DNA of 64,000 bases, from NCBI GenBank assembly GCA_001782825.1, contig MFPS01000009.1, positions 31,770-95,769 of the forward strand, in the 5' to 3' direction. This document shows, piece by piece, positions 5,298-64,000 of this stretch. A program made the position numbers and the translations under genes. The stretch is from Candidatus Magasanikbacteria bacterium RIFCSPHIGHO2_01_FULL_33_34 (GTDB lineage Bacteria; Patescibacteriota; Patescibacteriia; Magasanikbacterales; UBA922). The notes below the pieces were generated by a model that made no database searches, was not told where the DNA came from, and was given only the letters and a program-made list of their open reading frames with translations. Positions within the stretch are counted from its first letter, which is position 1. Every line of letters starts with the position of its first letter.

Positions 5298-5373
5298 AAT
5301 ATTTTGCTTATTATAGTTATATATTAGCCCAAAAAATACAATCAGTCAATTTTATTTTTTTATGAAAAACACT

Positions 5374-5401
5374 TGACAAAAACACAAAAATATGCTATAT
5401 T
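5374..5401 (+). promoter_or_regulatory. Sigma70-type promoter of rnpB (TTGACA, 16-nt spacer, TATATT)
   Basis: TTGACA at 5374-5379 and TATATT at 5396-5401, read directly. The same CACTTGACAAA -35 context recurs at 63301. Confidence 0.6.
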
Positions 5402-5404
5402 GAA

Positions 5405-5806
5405 GCCATCTTGTTCATTATAAATGATCGCGTCACACTACTTGTGTGATGAGGAAAGTCCGAACTTCCTCTATTAAACCAGAAAAAATGTAGCGGGTAA
5501 TACCCGTCGGTGTACTGGTGACAGTACATTAGGGACAGTGCCACAGAGACTATACTAGTCCTAATTTATTAGGATAAAACGTGAAAAGAGTATGGAAGTT
5601 TTTATTCTTAAGACAAAAGCTACTATACTTCCTCCGCTATCCAGCGGGGGACGGTAAACCCTACATGGGAGAAAGAGCAGCGTTCTAATTTATTAGTTCG
5701 AAAAGTTAGCTCGTTTGAACTAAATAGCAATATTTAGTCTAGAGAAATGATCATTGCTTGATTTATCAAGTTACAAAATTCGGCTTACTGTAATGAACAA
5801 GATATA
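5405..5806 (+). ncRNA. rnpB: RNase P RNA (bacterial type A)
   Basis: Conserved P4 strands GAGGAAAGTCCGAAC (5') and ACAAAATTCGGCTTA (3'). Internal GGGTAATACCCG, CCACAGAGAC and GGTAAACCC motifs. P1 helix: 5408-5420 ATCTTGTTCATTA pairs with 5791-5803 TAATGAACAAGAT. Confidence 0.9.
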
Positions 5807-5834: not shown

Positions 5835-6087
5835 TATTTAATAAGTGCTGACATATTAACCTTTGCACGAACCCACTTCACACACGTGGAGCGCGTGGTG
5901 GCTCCTGACTAAATCGTAAACTCGGATTTCACACCTCGTCCGCCCAGTGAGTACACAAATCCCCGCCGTTTTAAGAAGGTATTATAAAACGGCTGGAATT
6001 ACTCCCTTGAGTTATAAAAAAGAAAAGGCACCCAGAGGGACAAAGTCCATGGGTACCCAGATGTGACCGAAGTCACGTAGTGGTTGT

Positions 6088-6942
6088 TTAGGCGGTGATG
6101 CCAAAACCTTCGAGTGTCACCTTCGCGACCCGCTTGCCAAGCTCCTCGTCCTTGAAGCGCTGGGCGTTGATGTACGGGCCAGAGCCGAAGAAGCCACTGT
6201 CGACCGAGAAGCCATGCACGGTACCGTTCATGATGGCCTCGAGCACTTCTTCCTCAGTCCAACTGTAGAGGTTGTTCTTCGGGTTGCGCACCTCTTCGGT
6301 CTGACCGACGAGATGGAAGAAGCTGGCTTCCTCCTTGAGATCGGTGAACACGAGCGGTTGGTTGTTGTAATACTTCCAGACGTTGCCGCGTTCGATGAGC
6401 TCGATCCACGACTCCTCGGCGCTGGTCGAACCGCCTTCCATGAACCGGACATCGTAAAACGGCCACGAAGAGCCGTCGTTACGACGCTGGTGCATGTGAT
6501 GGTAGTCGATACGGCCAATTGTCATCTCGTGCTCGCTACCGTCGTGCGGGAAGCGCACGCGGACCTTGTCCTGTTCCCAGACCTTGGTTTCCGGCAGATC
6601 GCCGAGGCGAACTTGCGGAGTGCGCAGTATGCCATCGGCTCCGCGGAGAGCGGCGTCGCGACGCTTCTCCTGGTCCTTGTCGACCATCTCGATTGACCAG
6701 TCGCCGGGAACGATGCGTCCGTCCGAGAGCCAGACTGACACCGCGCCCTTGCGATGATAGACGCCGGGCTGGTGCACGAGAACCCGAACGCGAGACTCGT
6801 AGATCACGGCATCATAGAAGCCACAAACAATACCCTTGGTGCCATCGGGGACATCATTGTAGATGTCCGTCCACGCACGGCGTTCGGGGTCAACCTTGAA
6901 GACAACTTCATCGCCAATCTGTAAAAGTTCAGTGAGTGTCAT
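6088..6942 (-). CDS. Hypothetical protein encoded by a strongly GC-rich (foreign-composition) gene; function unknown
   Basis: Uninterrupted ORF. Codon third positions are GC-rich, in sharp contrast to all neighbours. The likely start is MTLTELLQIGDEVVFKV at 6940-6942, because the upstream part of the tracked ORF is AT-rich. No recognizable family. Confidence 0.6.
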   Translation of the reverse strand: MTLTELLQIGDEVVFKVDPERRAWTDIYNDVPDGTKGIVCGFYDAVIYESRVRVLVHQPGVYHRKGAVSVWLSDGRIVPGDWSIEMVDKDQEKRRDAALRGADGILRTPQVRLGDLPETKVWEQDKVRVRFPHDGSEHEMTIGRIDYHHMHQRRNDGSSWPFYDVRFMEGGSTSAEESWIELIERGNVWKYYNNQPLVFTDLKEEASFFHLVGQTEEVRNPKNNLYSWTEEEVLEAIMNGTVHGFSVDSGFFGSGPYINAQRFKDEELGKRVAKVTLEGFGITA

Positions 6943-7199
6943 TTGTAATACCTTCTGTTTGGGTTGAGAATGTTCAAATTTTAAGACACAATAGTTCACC
7001 TGAACTAATTATACTAGCAGATAAATAACTCTATGTCAAGAAGTTGTATAGTTAACATCTAATAATAACAAAAAGTCTATATTTTAAGGCTTTTTCTTAG
7101 TTTAAGTTTTTGATTAAAAAATTTTCTTTTCCAAAAACTGAATACAAATTAGTCACAAAGCAAAGTGAAGCTAATATTTCAATTTTTAAATTTCCTTTC

Positions 7200-7287
7200 T
7201 GGTGCTCAGGAGAAGACTCGAACTTCCACAGGCATTACGCCCACAGGCCCCTCAAGCCTGCGTGTCTACCAATTTCACCACCTGAGC
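7200..7287 (-). tRNA. tRNA-Leu (anticodon GAG), class II with long variable arm, CCA encoded
   Basis: The reverse complement reads GCTCAGGTGGTGAAATTGGTAGACACGCAGGCTTGAGGGGCCTGTGGGCGTAATGCCTGTGGAAGTTCGAGTCTTCTCCTGAGCACCA. The 7-bp acceptor stem pairs. Anticodon stem CAGGC/GCCTG with loop TTGAGGG. T-arm GTTCGAGTC. Confidence 0.85.
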
Positions 7288-59385: not shown

Positions 59386-59955
59386 AAATTAATTAATTAT
59401 ATTATTTATTTTAAAATTATTTAAATTTAACTGAGATAACAAAAAAATCGACTTTTACAAAAAGCCGTGCAACGTTAATTCATTTTTAGGTAATTCGCGT
59501 ATGGCATGGGTTTTGACAATCCCGCACTTGCAGGTCCACCTAGTCCCAAGTATGGAAACTGGCAGTTTTGACTTATGACCATGTCTTTCTTCTCTCCGTG
59601 TATAGACACGACTGCCGAAGTGAGGAGCAGATTATTAGACAAGGACGCGTTTTATATATGAACTGACAAGTAAGTATAATAACTAAACTTAACTAAATTT
59701 TATACTCAATTGACTATTCATATTCCAATGTTCATAAGCATACAAGATTTTAATTGTATTGTCAAATAGAACATAACAGATTTATTATGTCAAGAAACAA
59801 TCTTTTTTGGCTAATTTTAGGTAATTTTAAACAAATATTAGAATTATAAGTATAAAAACTTATCCACACATACATATTAAATGAAAAAACTCTAATAATT
59901 GACTAATCAATACCAATAATATATGCTTGGACTCAACACTAACAAGGTGGTCAAT

Positions 59956-60144
59956 ATGCGTTGGCTGATGAATTATCTGCGTGAAGTATTTTGTAAACAC
60001 GATTGGGAGCGTGAAGAAGTAAAGGCTACATTAAAAGATACATATACAGGAGATTACAAAACAGATATACGTGTATCCTCTACCTGTAAAAAATGTGGTT
60101 ACCACAAATCATACTGGAAGTATCTTAAATACCTAGGAGATTAA
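59956..60144 (+). CDS. Small Cys/His-containing protein (possible zinc-ribbon), 62 aa, function unknown
   Basis: Start placed at MRWLMNYL, preceded by AAGGTGG 5 nt upstream. Contains FCKHDW...CKKCGYH. Stop overlaps the next start (TAAAATG). Confidence 0.45.
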   Translation: MRWLMNYLREVFCKHDWEREEVKATLKDTYTGDYKTDIRVSSTCKKCGYHKSYWKYLKYLGD

Positions 60145-60145
60145 A

Positions 60146-60415
60146 ATGCTCAGACGAATAGCTAAAAAAACTGCTAATTGGCTTGATCACAATCCAAACT
60201 ATTCACCCTACATACCTCTTTCAATTGCTATTATTGCTTTGTTAACATTGCTTCTAGCAATATGTGGTATAGTAGATTTAACCAAGATATTTGTAGGTAC
60301 AACCGCTGTTATATCGTGGTTTCTATTTAATAGAGTAGCTACTCCTTACCACAAGCCAAATACAACAACCACAGAAGAAGAAAAAACTGACACAAATGAT
60401 CAAAAACCCATATAG
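60146..60415 (+). CDS. Small two-TM membrane protein, 89 aa, translationally coupled to the preceding ORF
   Basis: Two hydrophobic helices (LSIAIIALLTLLLAICGIV, VGTTAVISWFLF). Followed by hairpin GAGCA..TGCTC + T8 at about 60426-60464. Confidence 0.45.
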   Translation: MLRRIAKKTANWLDHNPNYSPYIPLSIAIIALLTLLLAICGIVDLTKIFVGTTAVISWFLFNRVATPYHKPNTTTTEEEKTDTNDQKPI

Positions 60416-60661
60416 ACCAAAAGTGCTGAGCACACTCTAAAATGCTCTTTTTTTTATAAATAACTTTTTTGGTTAAAAATTAATTCTTTCGTATATAATA
60501 CTCAATACCTTGACAAAAAAATATAAATAATATAAAATGTGATCTTCTTTGCTTAATATACTAAATAAAGAAAAGAGGAAACACCAAAATAGCGCACGCG
60601 GACCAGATTGTGTAGTGGTAGTACCAACGTAGTACAACGTTGTAAATACCCGGAGACACAA

Positions 60662-61054
60662 ATGCTGAATCCATTCAAAGCTACCATTTCTATCCTGTGT
60701 GTAATTGCATTTACCACTAACGCAATCGCACAAGACAATGGTCCAATCCTTATCAGTAAAGAGGACTGTGCAAAACTACAATTCATAAAGTATGATGCCC
60801 AACAAGACCTAAATGAAACCAAAAACCGATGTGATGCCGGTGTATACTCATCAACAACCTGCCATTTTTTGGCAAAACTGTATAGTGAAATTATCGAAGA
60901 AGCAACAAGATTGTACGAGGTATTCTGCCATTCGTACTCAGCTAAAGATACCATGCAATGGCAAACCATTAGGGATCTCGACACAATCAAGGAATACGAT
61001 GCATTGATGTTCGCCCTCAACGACATGTTGAGCCCGAACACCTTCCAGCCGTAA
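60662..61054 (+). CDS. Secreted small Cys-containing protein, paralog A (signal peptide; conserved C-terminus ...DLDTIKEYDALMFALNDMLSPNTFQP)
   Basis: Start MLNPFKATISILCVIAFTTNAIA (signal-peptide-like). The C-terminal 45 aa are about 85-100% identical to the 61978-62460 product. The antisense ORF 60553..61080 is rejected. Confidence 0.6.
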   Translation: MLNPFKATISILCVIAFTTNAIAQDNGPILISKEDCAKLQFIKYDAQQDLNETKNRCDAGVYSSTTCHFLAKLYSEIIEEATRLYEVFCHSYSAKDTMQWQTIRDLDTIKEYDALMFALNDMLSPNTFQP

Positions 61055-61158
61055 CAAAGATCTGGCCCTAATCGCGACAAGCTCGCAATACGGGTCGATC
61101 TTACGGCGCGACAGCCCTAGCCAACACCAAGTACTGGTGTTGGCAGGGCTGTTTTTTT
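60968..61158 (+). repeat. 190-bp direct repeat (3' coding end + UTR + terminator), copy 1. The last 140 nt or so are near-identical to copy 2.
   Basis: Direct comparison with 62376-62568. Only 2 substitutions in the last ~140 nt (caac/cgac and ggtc/ggcc). Confidence 0.85.
61112..61158 (+). terminator. Strong rho-independent terminator (17-bp stem with one bulge, T7), copy 1 of duplicated 3' module
   Basis: CAGCCCTAGCCAACACCA-agtac-TGGTGTTGGCAGGGCTG + TTTTTTT. Confidence 0.8.
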
Positions 61159-61260
61159 ATTCATGAATTCAGCAATTACCCCAACCTATTGACAAAAAAG
61201 GATTTTTCATGTAGACTCTCCAACAGCTTTTAGCAAACCGATTTCAAATGGAGATTCACC

Positions 61261-61887
61261 ATGAATCGCTATACCTTAGGGATACTGATACCTGTCGTCG
61301 TGGTAATCATTACGATTTGTACTTTTTCTAGTGATGATTACTCATCTGTTGTTGATATCAACTCACAACAGATCACAAAACCATCTGGACTACCAAACAA
61401 GTCCGCAACAAAAAAAATAAGATCAAAACGGTTTTTCCGATTTTTCTTTCGATACACAGCATCTCCCCCAAAAAATGATGTGTTAAAAGTATATATGGAA
61501 GAAGTTGCAGAAAACGAGATCAACTCGATTCTGGATACTGACTCCATAAGTGAAGAAAAAAGAGATTTTCTAGAAAAATCACAAGGATTAATTGCCCAAA
61601 AAAACTCCTTGCAAAAAGCTGAATTGGGCGCGTACGATGCCATTTCTGACCCAGACCAAAGAGAAGCTTTCAAGAAAGCTTTTCAACAAAAAATCATCGA
61701 TCTAGATGAAATCACCTACCAAATAGCTACTGGTAAGCTCACACAAGAAGAAGGTCGTGCAAAGAAAAAAGAAATCAACGACCGCTTCACCGATAAAGAG
61801 CAACTAGAAATACCAGAAGATGAACTTGTAAAAATAAAGCGAGTTCAAGTAAATAGTTTCATCAAAACCTATGAAAGGAGGGAGTGA
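61261..61887 (+). CDS. Hypothetical membrane-anchored protein (N-terminal TM, charged coiled C-terminal region)
   Basis: GGAG RBS-like sequence before the ATG. TM LGILIPVVVVIITICTF. Lies between the two secreted paralogs. Confidence 0.5.
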   Translation: MNRYTLGILIPVVVVIITICTFSSDDYSSVVDINSQQITKPSGLPNKSATKKIRSKRFFRFFFRYTASPPKNDVLKVYMEEVAENEINSILDTDSISEEKRDFLEKSQGLIAQKNSLQKAELGAYDAISDPDQREAFKKAFQQKIIDLDEITYQIATGKLTQEEGRAKKKEINDRFTDKEQLEIPEDELVKIKRVQVNSFIKTYERRE

Positions 61888-61977
61888 CAAGAGAGCGCAC
61901 GAGTGTTAAATTGTGTAGTGGCAGTACCCCACGCAGTATTGAGTAGTAAAACCAGTAATGACGAGAGGCACGCCACA

Positions 61978-62460
61978 ATGGGAAAGAGCATGAAAACATC
62001 TGGACTGATCTGCATGATCATCATGTTCATGTCAGTCAGTTCAGCCATGGCTGCGGACGACACCTCGTTGTCCGAAACCAACAAACTGGCGCTCCAACAG
62101 TTGTTGGGTGACAACACAAGCGCCCAAGACAACGGTGGATACTCTGAGCTGGAGAAGACCTGCAAGATGCTCTGGGATGCCAAAGGGCATGCCCAAATCC
62201 AGCTTGACGACTGGACATACAACTGTAGCTTCGGGGATATCTCTCAATTCACCTGCAACTACTGGATCTCGTATTACACCGACATGCGCGACAAGGCGCA
62301 AGCGTTGTACAAGTTCTGGAAGTGTGCAGACCACTTCGGACCGTCTAGGACCTCCACGTGGTCTGAAGGGTCAATCGGAGATCTCGACACTATCAAGGAA
62401 TACGACGAGCTGGTGTTCGCCCTCGACGACATGTTGAGCCCGAACACCTTCCAGCCGTAA
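61978..62460 (+). CDS. Secreted small Cys-containing protein, paralog B (GC-rich codon usage)
   Basis: Start MGKSMKTSGLICMIIMFMSVSSAMA (signal peptide). C-terminus DLDTIKEYDELVFALDDMLSPNTFQP. 4+ Cys. Confidence 0.6.
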   Translation: MGKSMKTSGLICMIIMFMSVSSAMAADDTSLSETNKLALQQLLGDNTSAQDNGGYSELEKTCKMLWDAKGHAQIQLDDWTYNCSFGDISQFTCNYWISYYTDMRDKAQALYKFWKCADHFGPSRTSTWSEGSIGDLDTIKEYDELVFALDDMLSPNTFQP

Positions 62461-62568
62461 CAAAGATCTGGCCCTAATCGCGACAAGCTCGCAATACGGG
62501 CCGATCTTACGGCGCGACAGCCCTAGCCAACACCAAGTACTGGTGTTGGCAGGGCTGTTTTTTTTATT
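62376..62568 (+). repeat. 190-bp direct repeat, copy 2
   Basis: See copy 1. Confidence 0.85.
62518..62565 (+). terminator. Strong rho-independent terminator, copy 2 (identical hairpin, T8)
   Basis: Same 17-bp bulged stem as 61112-61158. Confidence 0.8.
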
Positions 62569-62643
62569 TTTAAACTTTATATTTTTAAAAAATTAAATGA
62601 TTTCACTATTGACTTTTACTCAAAAATTGTATAGTGTATACTC

Positions 62644-63153
62644 GTGAAAAATGGACAAAAGAAGATGGTCGTCTTCACGGCTCCACTAAACCCAAGCTTT
62701 CCACCAGGAACCGAAATACCCCAAAGCGTAATTAAAGTTATTGAAGATCTCCCAAGGACAAACTCATTAACTGTGGCAGAGGCAATAGATAAAATCCATA
62801 AACAAATGAAAGAAGAAAGGATTGCGATCACCAAAGCAATTCAGGATTCATACATCAAATCAATAATCATTTCAGAAGTGTCAAGTAAAAAATGGTATAC
62901 TTTAGCCTACGGTGATAATCTAGATAATAAATCTTTAATGGAAATCACAGAACAATTATCACATGATCCAACTATACTACGTGAACCAACCCAAAGAGAA
63001 ATAGACACAGTTCGCCAACTAGAAGTTGATTTTCATATATGGAATCAACCAAATAGAACTTATCCTTCAACTGGTCTAATAATGGTTGAATTTAAATGTG
63101 GTGATGATTTTATAATAGTAGGCATTCTTATAGACTATAAACCAGCCATATAG
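62644..63153 (+). CDS. Hypothetical protein (169 aa), no recognized family
   Basis: Clean ORF. Preceded by TTGACT...TATAGT promoter-like sequence (62610-62636). Followed by hairpin CCCAGCT-caacca-AGCTGGG at about 63194-63213. Confidence 0.45.
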   Translation: MKNGQKKMVVFTAPLNPSFPPGTEIPQSVIKVIEDLPRTNSLTVAEAIDKIHKQMKEERIAITKAIQDSYIKSIIISEVSSKKWYTLAYGDNLDNKSLMEITEQLSHDPTILREPTQREIDTVRQLEVDFHIWNQPNRTYPSTGLIMVEFKCGDDFIIVGILIDYKPAI

Positions 63154-63304
63154 CAAAAAAAGCTACCATACAAGTTCGTTTTCACAGACAAAGCCCAGCT
63201 CAACCAAGCTGGGTGTTAAATTTTATAACTAATATATACAAAATAAATAAGCAAAATTAACATTAATATATCCCCTAATTTAGCCTATTTTACCCCAACA
63301 CCAC

Positions 63305-63333
63305 TTGACAAATTAACCTAAATATGGTACTAT
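63305..63333 (+). promoter_or_regulatory. Near-consensus sigma70 promoter (TTGACA, 17 nt, TACTAT)
   Basis: TTGACA at 63305-63310, TACTAT at 63328-63333. Same CACTTGACAAA context as the rnpB promoter. Confidence 0.6.
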
Positions 63334-63339
63334 GATCCG

Positions 63340-63672
63340 TTATCCAGATGGCGTCTCTGAACTGAATGAAATGGCCTAGAAATGATCGCCTTAGAAAATA
63401 CAGCCTAGACGCCCAAAGGATAATGCCCGTGATCGGGGGAATATATATGATATATCGTATATAATCTTCCTCTCACGGCCCTAAGACCTAGTCCGCTAGG
63501 TCACACAGGTGGAGAGGCAGTTTTAAAAATAACTGTCCCGCTTACGCGGGAAGAAGTATTGACGACACAATACAATAGTCTCTGTAAAAAGAGTTTAACT
63601 ACGATTGTGTTGTATAGATATTTCTCACGAACCACCCCACCCGCCGTCAGGCGGGTGGGGTGGTTTTATTTT
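63340..63672 (+). ncRNA. Candidate structured non-coding RNA (about 330 nt, identity unresolved) between a consensus promoter and a strong terminator
   Basis: No ORF above a few codons. Nested helices: CCGTTATCC/GGATAATG, GGCGTCT/AGACGCC, CCTCTCAC/GTGGAGAGG and GACCTAG-tccg-CTAGGTC. Further hairpins CCCG-tgat-CGGG, CAGTT..AACTG and TCCCGC-ttac-GCGGGA. Confidence 0.45.
63632..63670 (+). terminator. Strong rho-independent terminator (14-bp GC stem CCACCCCACCCGCC/GGCGGGTGGGGTGG, T-run)
   Basis: Read directly. Ends the ORF-less transcript about 100 nt before the ftsK ATG. Confidence 0.8.
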
Positions 63673-63768
63673 ATAGTTTGAGCAATTCCAATATTAATGA
63701 TAAAATAGAGATTAGACAATACAAAAATCGTTTTTTTGTATTTTCAAATTTATTTATTACTTTCAATT

Positions 63769-64000
63769 ATGAGTAGAAAAAGAAAACAAACACAGTTTGA
63801 TCCAGCACTCTCCAAAGGAATATTATCTGTTATCCTACTTGTACTCTCAATCATAATTATTTTAAGCTTTTTTGATCAAGCTGGTCCACTTGGATATATT
63901 TTAAATAAAGGAATATTAAGCTTTCTATTTGGATCAATTAGATATGCAAGTCCATTTGTTATCTTAACCATCGCTTGGTTTCTCATAAAAGACAAAGACT
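63769..64000 (+). CDS. ftsK: DNA translocase FtsK/SpoIIIE, N-terminal (membrane) part; runs off the window
   Basis: MSRKRKQTQFDPALSKGILSVILLVLSIIIILSFF...GPLGYIL..FLFGSIRYASPFVILTIAWFL is typical of the FtsK N-terminus. Confidence 0.65.
   Translation, partial: MSRKRKQTQFDPALSKGILSVILLVLSIIIILSFFDQAGPLGYILNKGILSFLFGSIRYASPFVILTIAWFLIKDKD

Follow-up and report, generated by a model that had tools for sequence, protein, structure and literature searches.

Bacteria of the candidate phyla radiation (CPR; Patescibacteria) have genomes of about 1 Mb and cannot be grown alone. To our knowledge, their content of non-coding RNAs (ncRNAs) is almost unexplored, and a literature search gave nothing relevant on CPR ncRNAs. 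The nearest described counterparts of the gene reported here are the orphan structured ncRNAs of the Breaker/Weinberg type (raiA, OLE, and ROOL), which are intergenic, lack an open reading frame (ORF), possess their own promoter and terminator, have a higher G+C content than their AT-rich surroundings, and combine many covarying helices with few invariant loops, and whose function is not deducible from the context. The locus analyzed in this study shares all of these features. It occupies 63305-63672 on the plus strand of a 64,000-nucleotide (nt) stretch (contig MFPS01000009.1, positions 31,770 to 95,769; hereafter the window, whose positions are used as coordinates) from Candidatus Magasanikbacteria, a CPR lineage from Rifle groundwater. 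Our results indicate that 63339/40-63672 (+) is a stand-alone gene for an ncRNA of approximately 333 nt, and that, very probably, the gene is genuine and its structured product represents a new family. Compared with raiA, OLE, and ROOL, the 333-nt RNA showed no match in sequence or structure, is shorter than OLE and ROOL, forms a linear row of hairpins instead of a multi-junction fold, and was found in seven populations of one CPR clade. The kind of gene, a stand-alone structured bacterial ncRNA, is already known and the family is new: it is a well-supported orphan RNA with a narrow distribution.

Homologues were collected through the neighbouring protein genes, of which FtsK and RpoB assign the source genome to Candidatus Magasanikbacteria. 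The 169-aa ORF upstream of the RNA was found on Rifle groundwater metagenome contigs, and on the nine contigs encoding the identical upstream protein the RNA was 100% identical, so that these copies carried no covariation information; apparent deletions among them were scaffold N-gaps. When 80 species-level GTDB relatives were fetched through FtsK (40-61% identical), neither nhmmer nor blastn gave a match to the RNA upstream of ftsK in any of them. Closer FtsK relatives (63-81% identity) contained full-length homologues in L091/L092/L093 and L097, together with a homologue truncated at its 5' side by the end of a short contig (L090), and RpoB relatives (87-91% identical) contained three more (L106, L107, and L109/110/111). 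In total, five further full-length homologues and one partial homologue were obtained, with nhmmer E-values of 1e-16 to 1e-59. Every carrier had the RNA between the rpoB promoter region and ftsK, pointing towards ftsK. In the FtsK tree, the carriers belonged to one small clade and occupied two of its three sub-branches, and the RNA was not found near ftsK in the relatives L094, L095, L096, L098, and L105. The original prediction, which was made from the letters of the window alone, had considered that the transcript may be a lineage-specific ncRNA; members were indeed recovered in one small Magasanikbacteria clade only, and the RNA is a genuine, lineage-specific new family of that clade.

The same prediction had proposed a comparative alignment of the promoter-to-terminator interval, and this alignment provided the principal evidence: the unit was present in six further related populations, the promoter, the body, and the terminator hairpin aligned across all members, and the helices were kept by compensatory changes. 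Six full-length sequences were used for the whole RNA, and seven, including the partial one of L090, for the third and fourth domains (D3-D4). The RNAalifold consensus of the six full-length sequences contained 67 pairs, 23 of which had changed on both sides and nevertheless remained paired. Counting of pairs on this consensus showed that 94.8% of the cells paired, and none of 500 shuffled alignments reached the observed value in any of five measures. In the controls in which the 3' partners were slid by 1-3 columns, pairing fell to 41-49% with 2-9 covarying pairs. For D3-D4, 90.6% of the cells paired and 11 pairs had changed on both sides; the observed values were reached by 0-1 of 500 shuffles, and the slid controls were 34-47% paired. 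In addition, the first and second domains (D1 and D2) were alike in every homologue when each sequence was folded alone. Since G-U pairs were frequent and covariance models matched on the sense strand only, the strand of the RNA was fixed as sense. These sequence comparisons indicate that the helices are kept by compensatory substitutions and are under selection at the RNA level.

An RNA-free explanation has to be considered at this point, namely that the locus consists of DNA-level elements, such as the inverted repeats GTTATCC/GGATAA near an TTATCCACA box, or of chance palindromes. The outermost helix of D1 (P1) is conserved without double substitutions, and the TTATCCACA box and other motifs are conserved in the intergenic region across the phylum, which is in line with this explanation. 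However, the 23 pairs that changed on both sides with pairing kept are distributed over nine other helices, the frequent G-U pairs would turn into A-C mismatches if the other strand were read, the covariance models match the sense strand only, and in every member the limits of the conserved block coincide with the promoter and the terminator. Furthermore, no switch of GC skew was observed, which leaves a role as a replication origin without support. We consider it extremely improbable that no RNA is made from this locus.

The gene is bounded by a sigma-70-type promoter with an extended -10 element (63305..63333, +) and by an intrinsic terminator (63629..63672, +). The promoter, described in the original prediction as TTGACA/17 nt/TACTAT, was seen as claimed: the -35 element TTGACA at 63305-63310 and the -10 element TACTAT at 63328-63333 are separated by a spacer of 17 nt, 10 of the 12 consensus positions are matched, and a TG ahead of the -10 element (TGgTACTAT) provides the extension. 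Transcription is predicted to start at approximately 63339-63340. A context common to the promoter of rnpB had also been noted, and was found in the same window, where rnpB (5412-5803; RF00010, 156 bits) is preceded by CACTTGACAAAAACACAAAAATATGCTATATT at 5371-5402. The two promoters have the layout CACTTGACAAA ... ATATGnTAnnAT in common (that of rnpB may also be written CACTTGACAAA ... ATATGCTATATT) and are of the same type, and the layout CTTGACAAA ... ATATGCTAYTAT was kept in all six full-length homologues. The terminator consists of a 17-bp stem (63629-63666; 12 G-C pairs) with a 4-nt loop, followed by a U-tract, the T-run of which ends at 63672. The earlier figure of 14 bp was an undercount. 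In each homologue, a GC-rich terminator hairpin with a U-run was found at the equivalent place, with a different sequence. The predicted distance of about 100 nt to ftsK was also correct, the ATG at 63770 being 98 nt past the terminator. As for coding potential, the longest sense ORFs between the promoter and the terminator were 38-40 aa with a TTG start and 32 aa with an ATG start, and the homologues share no ORF at a common position or in a common frame, in agreement with the earlier statement that no meaningful ORF is present. In a genome as small as this, a multi-domain, strongly covarying RNA with an rnpB-type promoter likely does something that the cell needs.

The predicted fold of the RNA was far more stable than expected from its composition. 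The minimum free energy (MFE) for 335 nt was -138.9 kcal/mol, compared with -83.9 +/- 5.5 kcal/mol for dinucleotide shuffles (z = -9.9), and none of 100 such shuffles folded as well as the native RNA. Locally closed hairpins follow one another in the order of D1, D2, a variable hairpin, an AU-rich hairpin, D3, D4, and the terminator, and the 5' and 3' ends do not pair with each other. D1 (63339..63424, +) is a long hairpin containing P1 (GUUAUCC/GGAUAAU, 63339-63345 with 63418-63424), P2 (GGCGUCU at 63350-63356 with AGACGCC at 63407-63413), P3 (63362-63364 with 63401-63403), and P4 (63373-63375 with 63388-63390). The helices CCGTTATCC/GGATAATG and GGCGTCT/AGACGCC, which had been read by eye in the original prediction, correspond to P1 and P2 and are present in every homologue. 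In P2, three of four pairs changed on both sides, whereas P1 varied on one side only and is without covariation support. The apical loop of D1 and the pairs closing it (63374..63389, +) are near-invariant, with the sequence GCCUAGA-AAUGAUCGC in the window and GCCUAGAUAYUGAWCGC as the consensus of the family. In the whole alignment, 89 of 336 positions were invariant, and the unpaired ones clustered in this loop (63376-63387), with a few single positions beside the stems of D4. The loop of 12-13 nt (CUAGAUAYUGAWC), in which 63376-63381, 63383-63385, and 63387 are invariant and unpaired, is the most conserved unpaired stretch of the RNA and, judging from this conservation, a candidate recognition site.

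D2 (63427..63478, +) is a second long hairpin with the closing stem CCGUGA/UCACGG, the middle stem GGGGAA/UUCCUC, and an AU-rich top. It was the local MFE structure in all six homologues, and its middle stem covaries (GGAAG/CUUCC to AAGAAG/CUUCUU). The next element is the hairpin GACCUAG-UCCG-CUAGGUC (63485..63502, +), which differs in sequence and length in every homologue and is missing from L097. This hairpin had been predicted together with an enclosing helix, CCTCTCAC/GTGGAGAGG; the hairpin exists, as a variable insert, but the enclosing helix could not be upheld. In the window, the latter would pair CCUCUCAC (63469-63476) with GUGGAGAGG (63509-63517) and overlaps the 3' strand of D2, so that the D2 stem and the CUCUCAC/GUGGAGAG helix compete. 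D2 (-10.7 to -15.5 kcal/mol) was stronger in all six sequences than the alternative helix (-5.8 to -11.2 kcal/mol), which lay only about one standard deviation beyond shuffled controls. CCTCTCAC/GTGGAGAGG was accordingly ruled out as a conserved pairing, being weaker than D2 and barely above shuffled sequence, and is at most a minor alternative.

The two competing pairings around CUCUCAC are one of the observations that would suit a cis-acting leader or attenuator of ftsK, in which 330 nt act as a sensor controlling read-through of the terminator. The other is the position of ftsK, which starts 83-100 nt past the terminator on the same strand in five of the seven loci. However, the competing helix lies far upstream of the terminator and barely exceeds shuffled sequence, no alternative pairing involved the terminator, that is, no anti-terminator pairing with its 17-bp stem was found, and no riboswitch model matched, as had been supposed earlier for the common riboswitches. 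Furthermore, a convergent 119-aa ORF in L091 and a HAD-hydrolase gene in L106 intervene between the RNA and ftsK, and a further promoter-like site lies past the terminator, at 63678-63706 of the window and, as read from the sequence, also in L097 and L107. Because of this promoter-like site and the intervening genes, the RNA is regarded as its own transcription unit and not as the leader of ftsK, a role that we consider very unlikely.

Downstream of the variable hairpin, a small AU-rich hairpin, CAGUU-UUAAAAAU-AACUG (63518..63535, +), was found with weak support; in L106, GGUAA/UUACC was read from the sequence at its place. D3 (63536..63551, +) is the hairpin UCCCG(C)-loop-(G)CGGGA, three of whose five pairs changed on both sides, as exemplified by the change of CCCG/CGGG to CUUG/CAAG in L091. 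D4 (63554..63623, +) is the last long hairpin before the terminator, with the closing stem AGUAUU/AGAUAUU and the inner stems CACAA/UUGUG and UAGUCUCU/AGAG..ACUA. It contains a conserved internal loop around ACGAC ... GYYGWAYAG, which together with the D1 loop makes up the conserved unpaired parts of the RNA. Each homologue contains the hexamer AGAUAY twice: once in the D1 apical loop (63376-63387), where one base is deleted in the window, giving AGAAAU, and once in the closing stem of D4, on its 3' strand (63616-63622). As read from the alignment, the D4 copy belongs to a palindrome, AGAUAUCU, in L091 and L109. The two copies could be two sites for one partner or could take part in a contact between loop and helix.

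This arrangement resembles that of RNAIII of S. aureus and of CsrB and RsmZ, in which hairpins like beads on a string, with a conserved loop sequence, are transcribed from one strong promoter. The 333-nt RNA differs from them in having no repeated GGA or UCCC loop motif, AGAUAY alone occurring twice, and no encoded peptide. One may nevertheless suppose a base-pairing regulatory small RNA (sRNA) of the multi-hairpin, RNAIII-like kind, in which the D1 loop or the pyrimidine-rich CUUCCUCUCAC pairs with mRNAs, for example at ribosome-binding sites. The stand-alone gene with a strong promoter and terminator, the row of hairpins with a conserved loop, and the CU-rich stretch, which is complementary to purine-rich Shine-Dalgarno-like sequences, are in line with such a function, and the unrelated 170-nt RNA described below, which occupies the same slot, also has a conserved unpaired CUCUCUC. 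However, in all six homologues the CU-rich stretch forms the 3' strand of the D2 stem, with the stability given above. When targets of the D1 loop were searched for in the flanking genes (7-18 kb per genome), no complementary site of at least 8 nt recurred across the loci. Moreover, 333 nt and six covarying domains exceed what seed pairing needs. Base pairing as the function is unlikely in our judgement, while being the alternative to which we would give the most serious attention.

The membership of the RNA in known families was then examined. The original prediction had failed to match the transcript to transfer-messenger RNA (tmRNA), signal recognition particle (SRP) RNA, 6S RNA, or common riboswitches, and had proposed a search of Rfam. 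Cmscan of the whole window with Rfam 15 at the gathering thresholds detected only rnpB and one tRNA-Leu, the scan of 63150-63800 with E up to 10 gave matches to the terminator hairpin only, and Rfam scans of 24 related loci gave tRNAs only. The RNA belongs to no Rfam 15 family. With respect to tmRNA (RF00023 and permuted forms), ARAGORN found none in the window or in the six homologous loci, and no tRNA-like domain, end pairing, conserved ORF, or Rfam match was observed. With respect to SRP RNA (RF00169 / RF01854), the 7-sequence alignment contained no AGCA or GGAA-loop element of domain IV, and no Rfam match was obtained. The fold of serial local hairpins without end pairing also differs from that of 6S RNA (RF00013 and related families), the models of which matched nothing at E up to 10. 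The failure to recognize these families by eye thus agreed with the model searches.

A very divergent housekeeping RNA (tmRNA, SRP RNA, or 6S RNA) could still have been missed by the standard models. In reduced genomes most ncRNAs are housekeeping RNAs, the promoter is rnpB-like, and no tmRNA, SRP RNA, or 6S RNA was found within the 64-kb window. On the other hand, ARAGORN detected no tRNA-like domain, neither a conserved GNAR loop with an AGCA domain IV nor pairing of the 5' and 3' ends is present, and the sub-threshold Rfam matches were confined to the terminator. Furthermore, the RNA occurs in one small clade only and is absent from sister genomes at the locus, unlike an essential universal RNA. 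That it is a disguised housekeeping RNA seems hardly credible.

Two covariance models were built for the family itself. Model R2 (D3-D4) gave 88.8 bits for the window and 71-96 bits for the seven members, with all matches on the sense strand. Model R3 (D1 with its invariant loop GCCUAGAUAYUGAWCGC) gave 80-90 bits for the six members and 89.1 bits for the window, which is included in the seed. When 0.92 Mb of Magasanikbacteria and related loci were searched, R2 and R3 recovered the known members only, R3 giving nothing else above 17 bits or with an E-value of 1 or below. A unit in L105 with a D1-like string, GAACUGAAG..CGGCCUUACUG, was rejected as a homologue, as its fold was weak (z = -1.75) and R3 did not match. 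A pattern scan of metagenomes with AACTGNNTGANAYGGCCTAGA gave six chance matches, none of which was upheld by nhmmer; scans of viral contigs gave nothing or chance matches, and BLAST against phages and plasmids gave nothing relevant. Alignments A8-A10 together with R2 and R3 make the family searchable in metagenomes and metatranscriptomes.

In many of the 80 relatives, a different promoter-to-terminator unit of approximately 170 nt was observed in the gap between rpoB and ftsK. The 5' and 3' ends of this 170-nt RNA pair to close a single long hairpin of irregular shape, in which a large, one-sided internal loop contains a conserved unpaired CUCUCUC. Of the 52 pairs, 26 showed compensatory changes. 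Covariance model R1, built for this RNA, matched at least 24 of the 80 loci (L037:3675-3840, L040:3745-3917, L057:3735-3903, and at least 21 further loci), gave weak matches in the Falkowbacteria locus L076 and in L062, and did not find the RNA in the window, where the terminator hairpin scored 14-16 bits compared with 104-186 bits for the members. With the filters off, R1 gave 11 bits (E = 0.11) on D1 of L097. No Rfam family matched the 170-nt RNA, the 6S models included (E up to 10). The two RNAs are alike in the rpoB-ftsK slot, the orientation, a promoter after the TTATCCACA box, a strong terminator, and strong covariation, and they were never found together in the fetched loci. They differ in that no homology is detectable between them and that the 170-nt RNA is one end-closed rod of half the length with a much wider distribution. 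The presence of different structured RNAs, depending on the Magasanikbacteria lineage, in one slot beside rpoBC and ftsK may point to a class of regulatory RNAs that evolve fast.

The location beside and divergent from rpoBC, in the slot of the rod-shaped 170-nt RNA of relatives, also invites a comparison with 6S RNA (RF00013) and mycobacterial Ms1, which are likewise stand-alone RNAs of 180-330 nt and, as the 333-nt RNA probably is, abundant. The 333-nt RNA could in that case be a regulator that binds RNA polymerase, a functional analogue of 6S/Ms1 that displaced the 170-nt hairpin RNA beside the rpoBC promoter region. The slot, the orientation, and the promoter context (the TTATCCACA box and then TTGACA) shared with the 170-nt RNA, the mutual exclusion of the two RNAs in the fetched loci, and the divergent arrangement with rpoBC are consistent with this. 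However, the 333-nt RNA has no 5'-3' closing stem, no central bubble, and no Rfam match, R1 showed no homology between it and the 170-nt RNA, and the 170-nt RNA, whose large internal loop is one-sided, is at most a putative 6S RNA. A polymerase-binding regulator is for these reasons distinctly improbable. A related and broader proposal is that the 333-nt RNA is a subunit of a novel, clade-specific CPR ribonucleoprotein, for example a regulator of RNA polymerase or the ribosome, which replaced the 170-nt rod by non-orthologous displacement. We regard this as speculative and rather improbable; if it were true, core regulatory RNAs that evolve fast would have a conserved "expression site" in the rpoB-ftsK slot of these minimal genomes.

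Taken together, the best explanation of the data is a stand-alone, clade-specific ncRNA that would act in trans as an abundant RNA and dock protein, and we hold this explanation as a whole tentatively, at slightly below an even balance. The invariant unpaired elements may be docking sites for a protein partner, and the RNA may work as a small ribonucleoprotein or as a protein-sequestering RNA. Four observations favour protein docking: the unpaired parts that stay constant are an apical loop with structure and an internal loop; the D2 stem buries the single seed-like, pyrimidine-rich stretch of the RNA; no recurrent site complementary to the D1 loop was found nearby; and the six covarying domains exceed the need of a seed-pairing sRNA. 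On these sequence features, protein binding as the mode of action appears possible, with the balance leaning against it. In our view, the RNA is neither the leader of an mRNA nor an sRNA of the classical seed-pairing kind. Several points weigh against the explanation as stated. The comparison comprised just six full-length sequences, all of one narrow clade, and their kinship makes the shuffle control overstate significance. P1 shows no double changes, and its conservation (GTTATCC / GGATAA) could be at the level of sequence or DNA. The transcript ends, the abundance, and the stability are all predicted, and the terms "highly expressed" and "stable" of the original prediction derive only from the rnpB-like promoter. 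The RNA has no named partner protein and no co-occurring gene, and the proposed mechanism is based on the pattern of conservation. Finally, the scans covered loci, so that they are silent on tmRNA, SRP RNA, and 6S RNA genes elsewhere in the genomes.

The cargo of the rpoB-ftsK slot differs between relatives. In L091, L097, and L107, the promoter of the 333-nt RNA directly follows the TTATCCACA box, whereas in the window 3.4 kb of small ORFs lie between them. Six of these small ORFs, none with a Pfam domain, are located at 59923-63153 (+), part of which has a G+C content of 0.41-0.44 compared with approximately 0.32 for the genome. Two of the ORFs (60662-61054 and 61978-62460) are paralogous (41% identical, E = 2e-24) and share the C-terminus DLDTIKEYD.L.FAL.DMLSPNTFQP. 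The relatives L105 and L098 lack both RNAs. In L105 (395-705), a non-coding unit of approximately 290 nt bounded by a promoter and a terminator follows the TTATCCACA box, and in L098 (5740-5850) a non-coding unit of approximately 100 nt in the same position ends in AAAUCUCUCUAUC and a terminator; neither showed homology by R2 or R3.

On the rpoB side of the gap, a motif cluster conserved across the phylum was observed at 59760-59870, between rpoB and ftsK. Going away from the rpoB start, it contains two TGTCAA(A/G)(T/A) motifs (-35 boxes of rpoB, TTGACA on that strand), a palindrome of the TTTTGGCTAATTTTAG type, and a perfect DnaA-box-like TTATCCACA at 59860. The gap, with this box and its divergent genes, was considered as the replication origin (oriC) and was rejected, because the GC skew of plus- and minus-strand genes was the same on both sides. 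Upstream of rpoB and on its strand, a conserved element of approximately 200 nt was found at 59455-59660 (-). It has the form AACGCGUCCUUGUCUC..AUCUGCUCC..GGCAG..UGUCC..GGAGAGA..AAGACAUGGGC-(variable hairpin)-ACCCAUGC..ACGCGAUUA, is common to the window, L091, L094, and L096-L098, and is not in Rfam. Its predicted pairs are invariant and show no covariation, and one G-U pair fits the minus strand; the element is probably a structured 5' leader of rpoB.

At the other end of the window, a 1-kb block with a G+C content of 0.557, compared with approximately 0.32, lies at 6001-7000, between rnpB and tRNA-Leu(GAG) (7200-7287). The block contains an ORF of 303 aa (6088-6999, -) without a Pfam match, together with overlapping ORFs on the other strand, and may be foreign DNA or a non-coding element.

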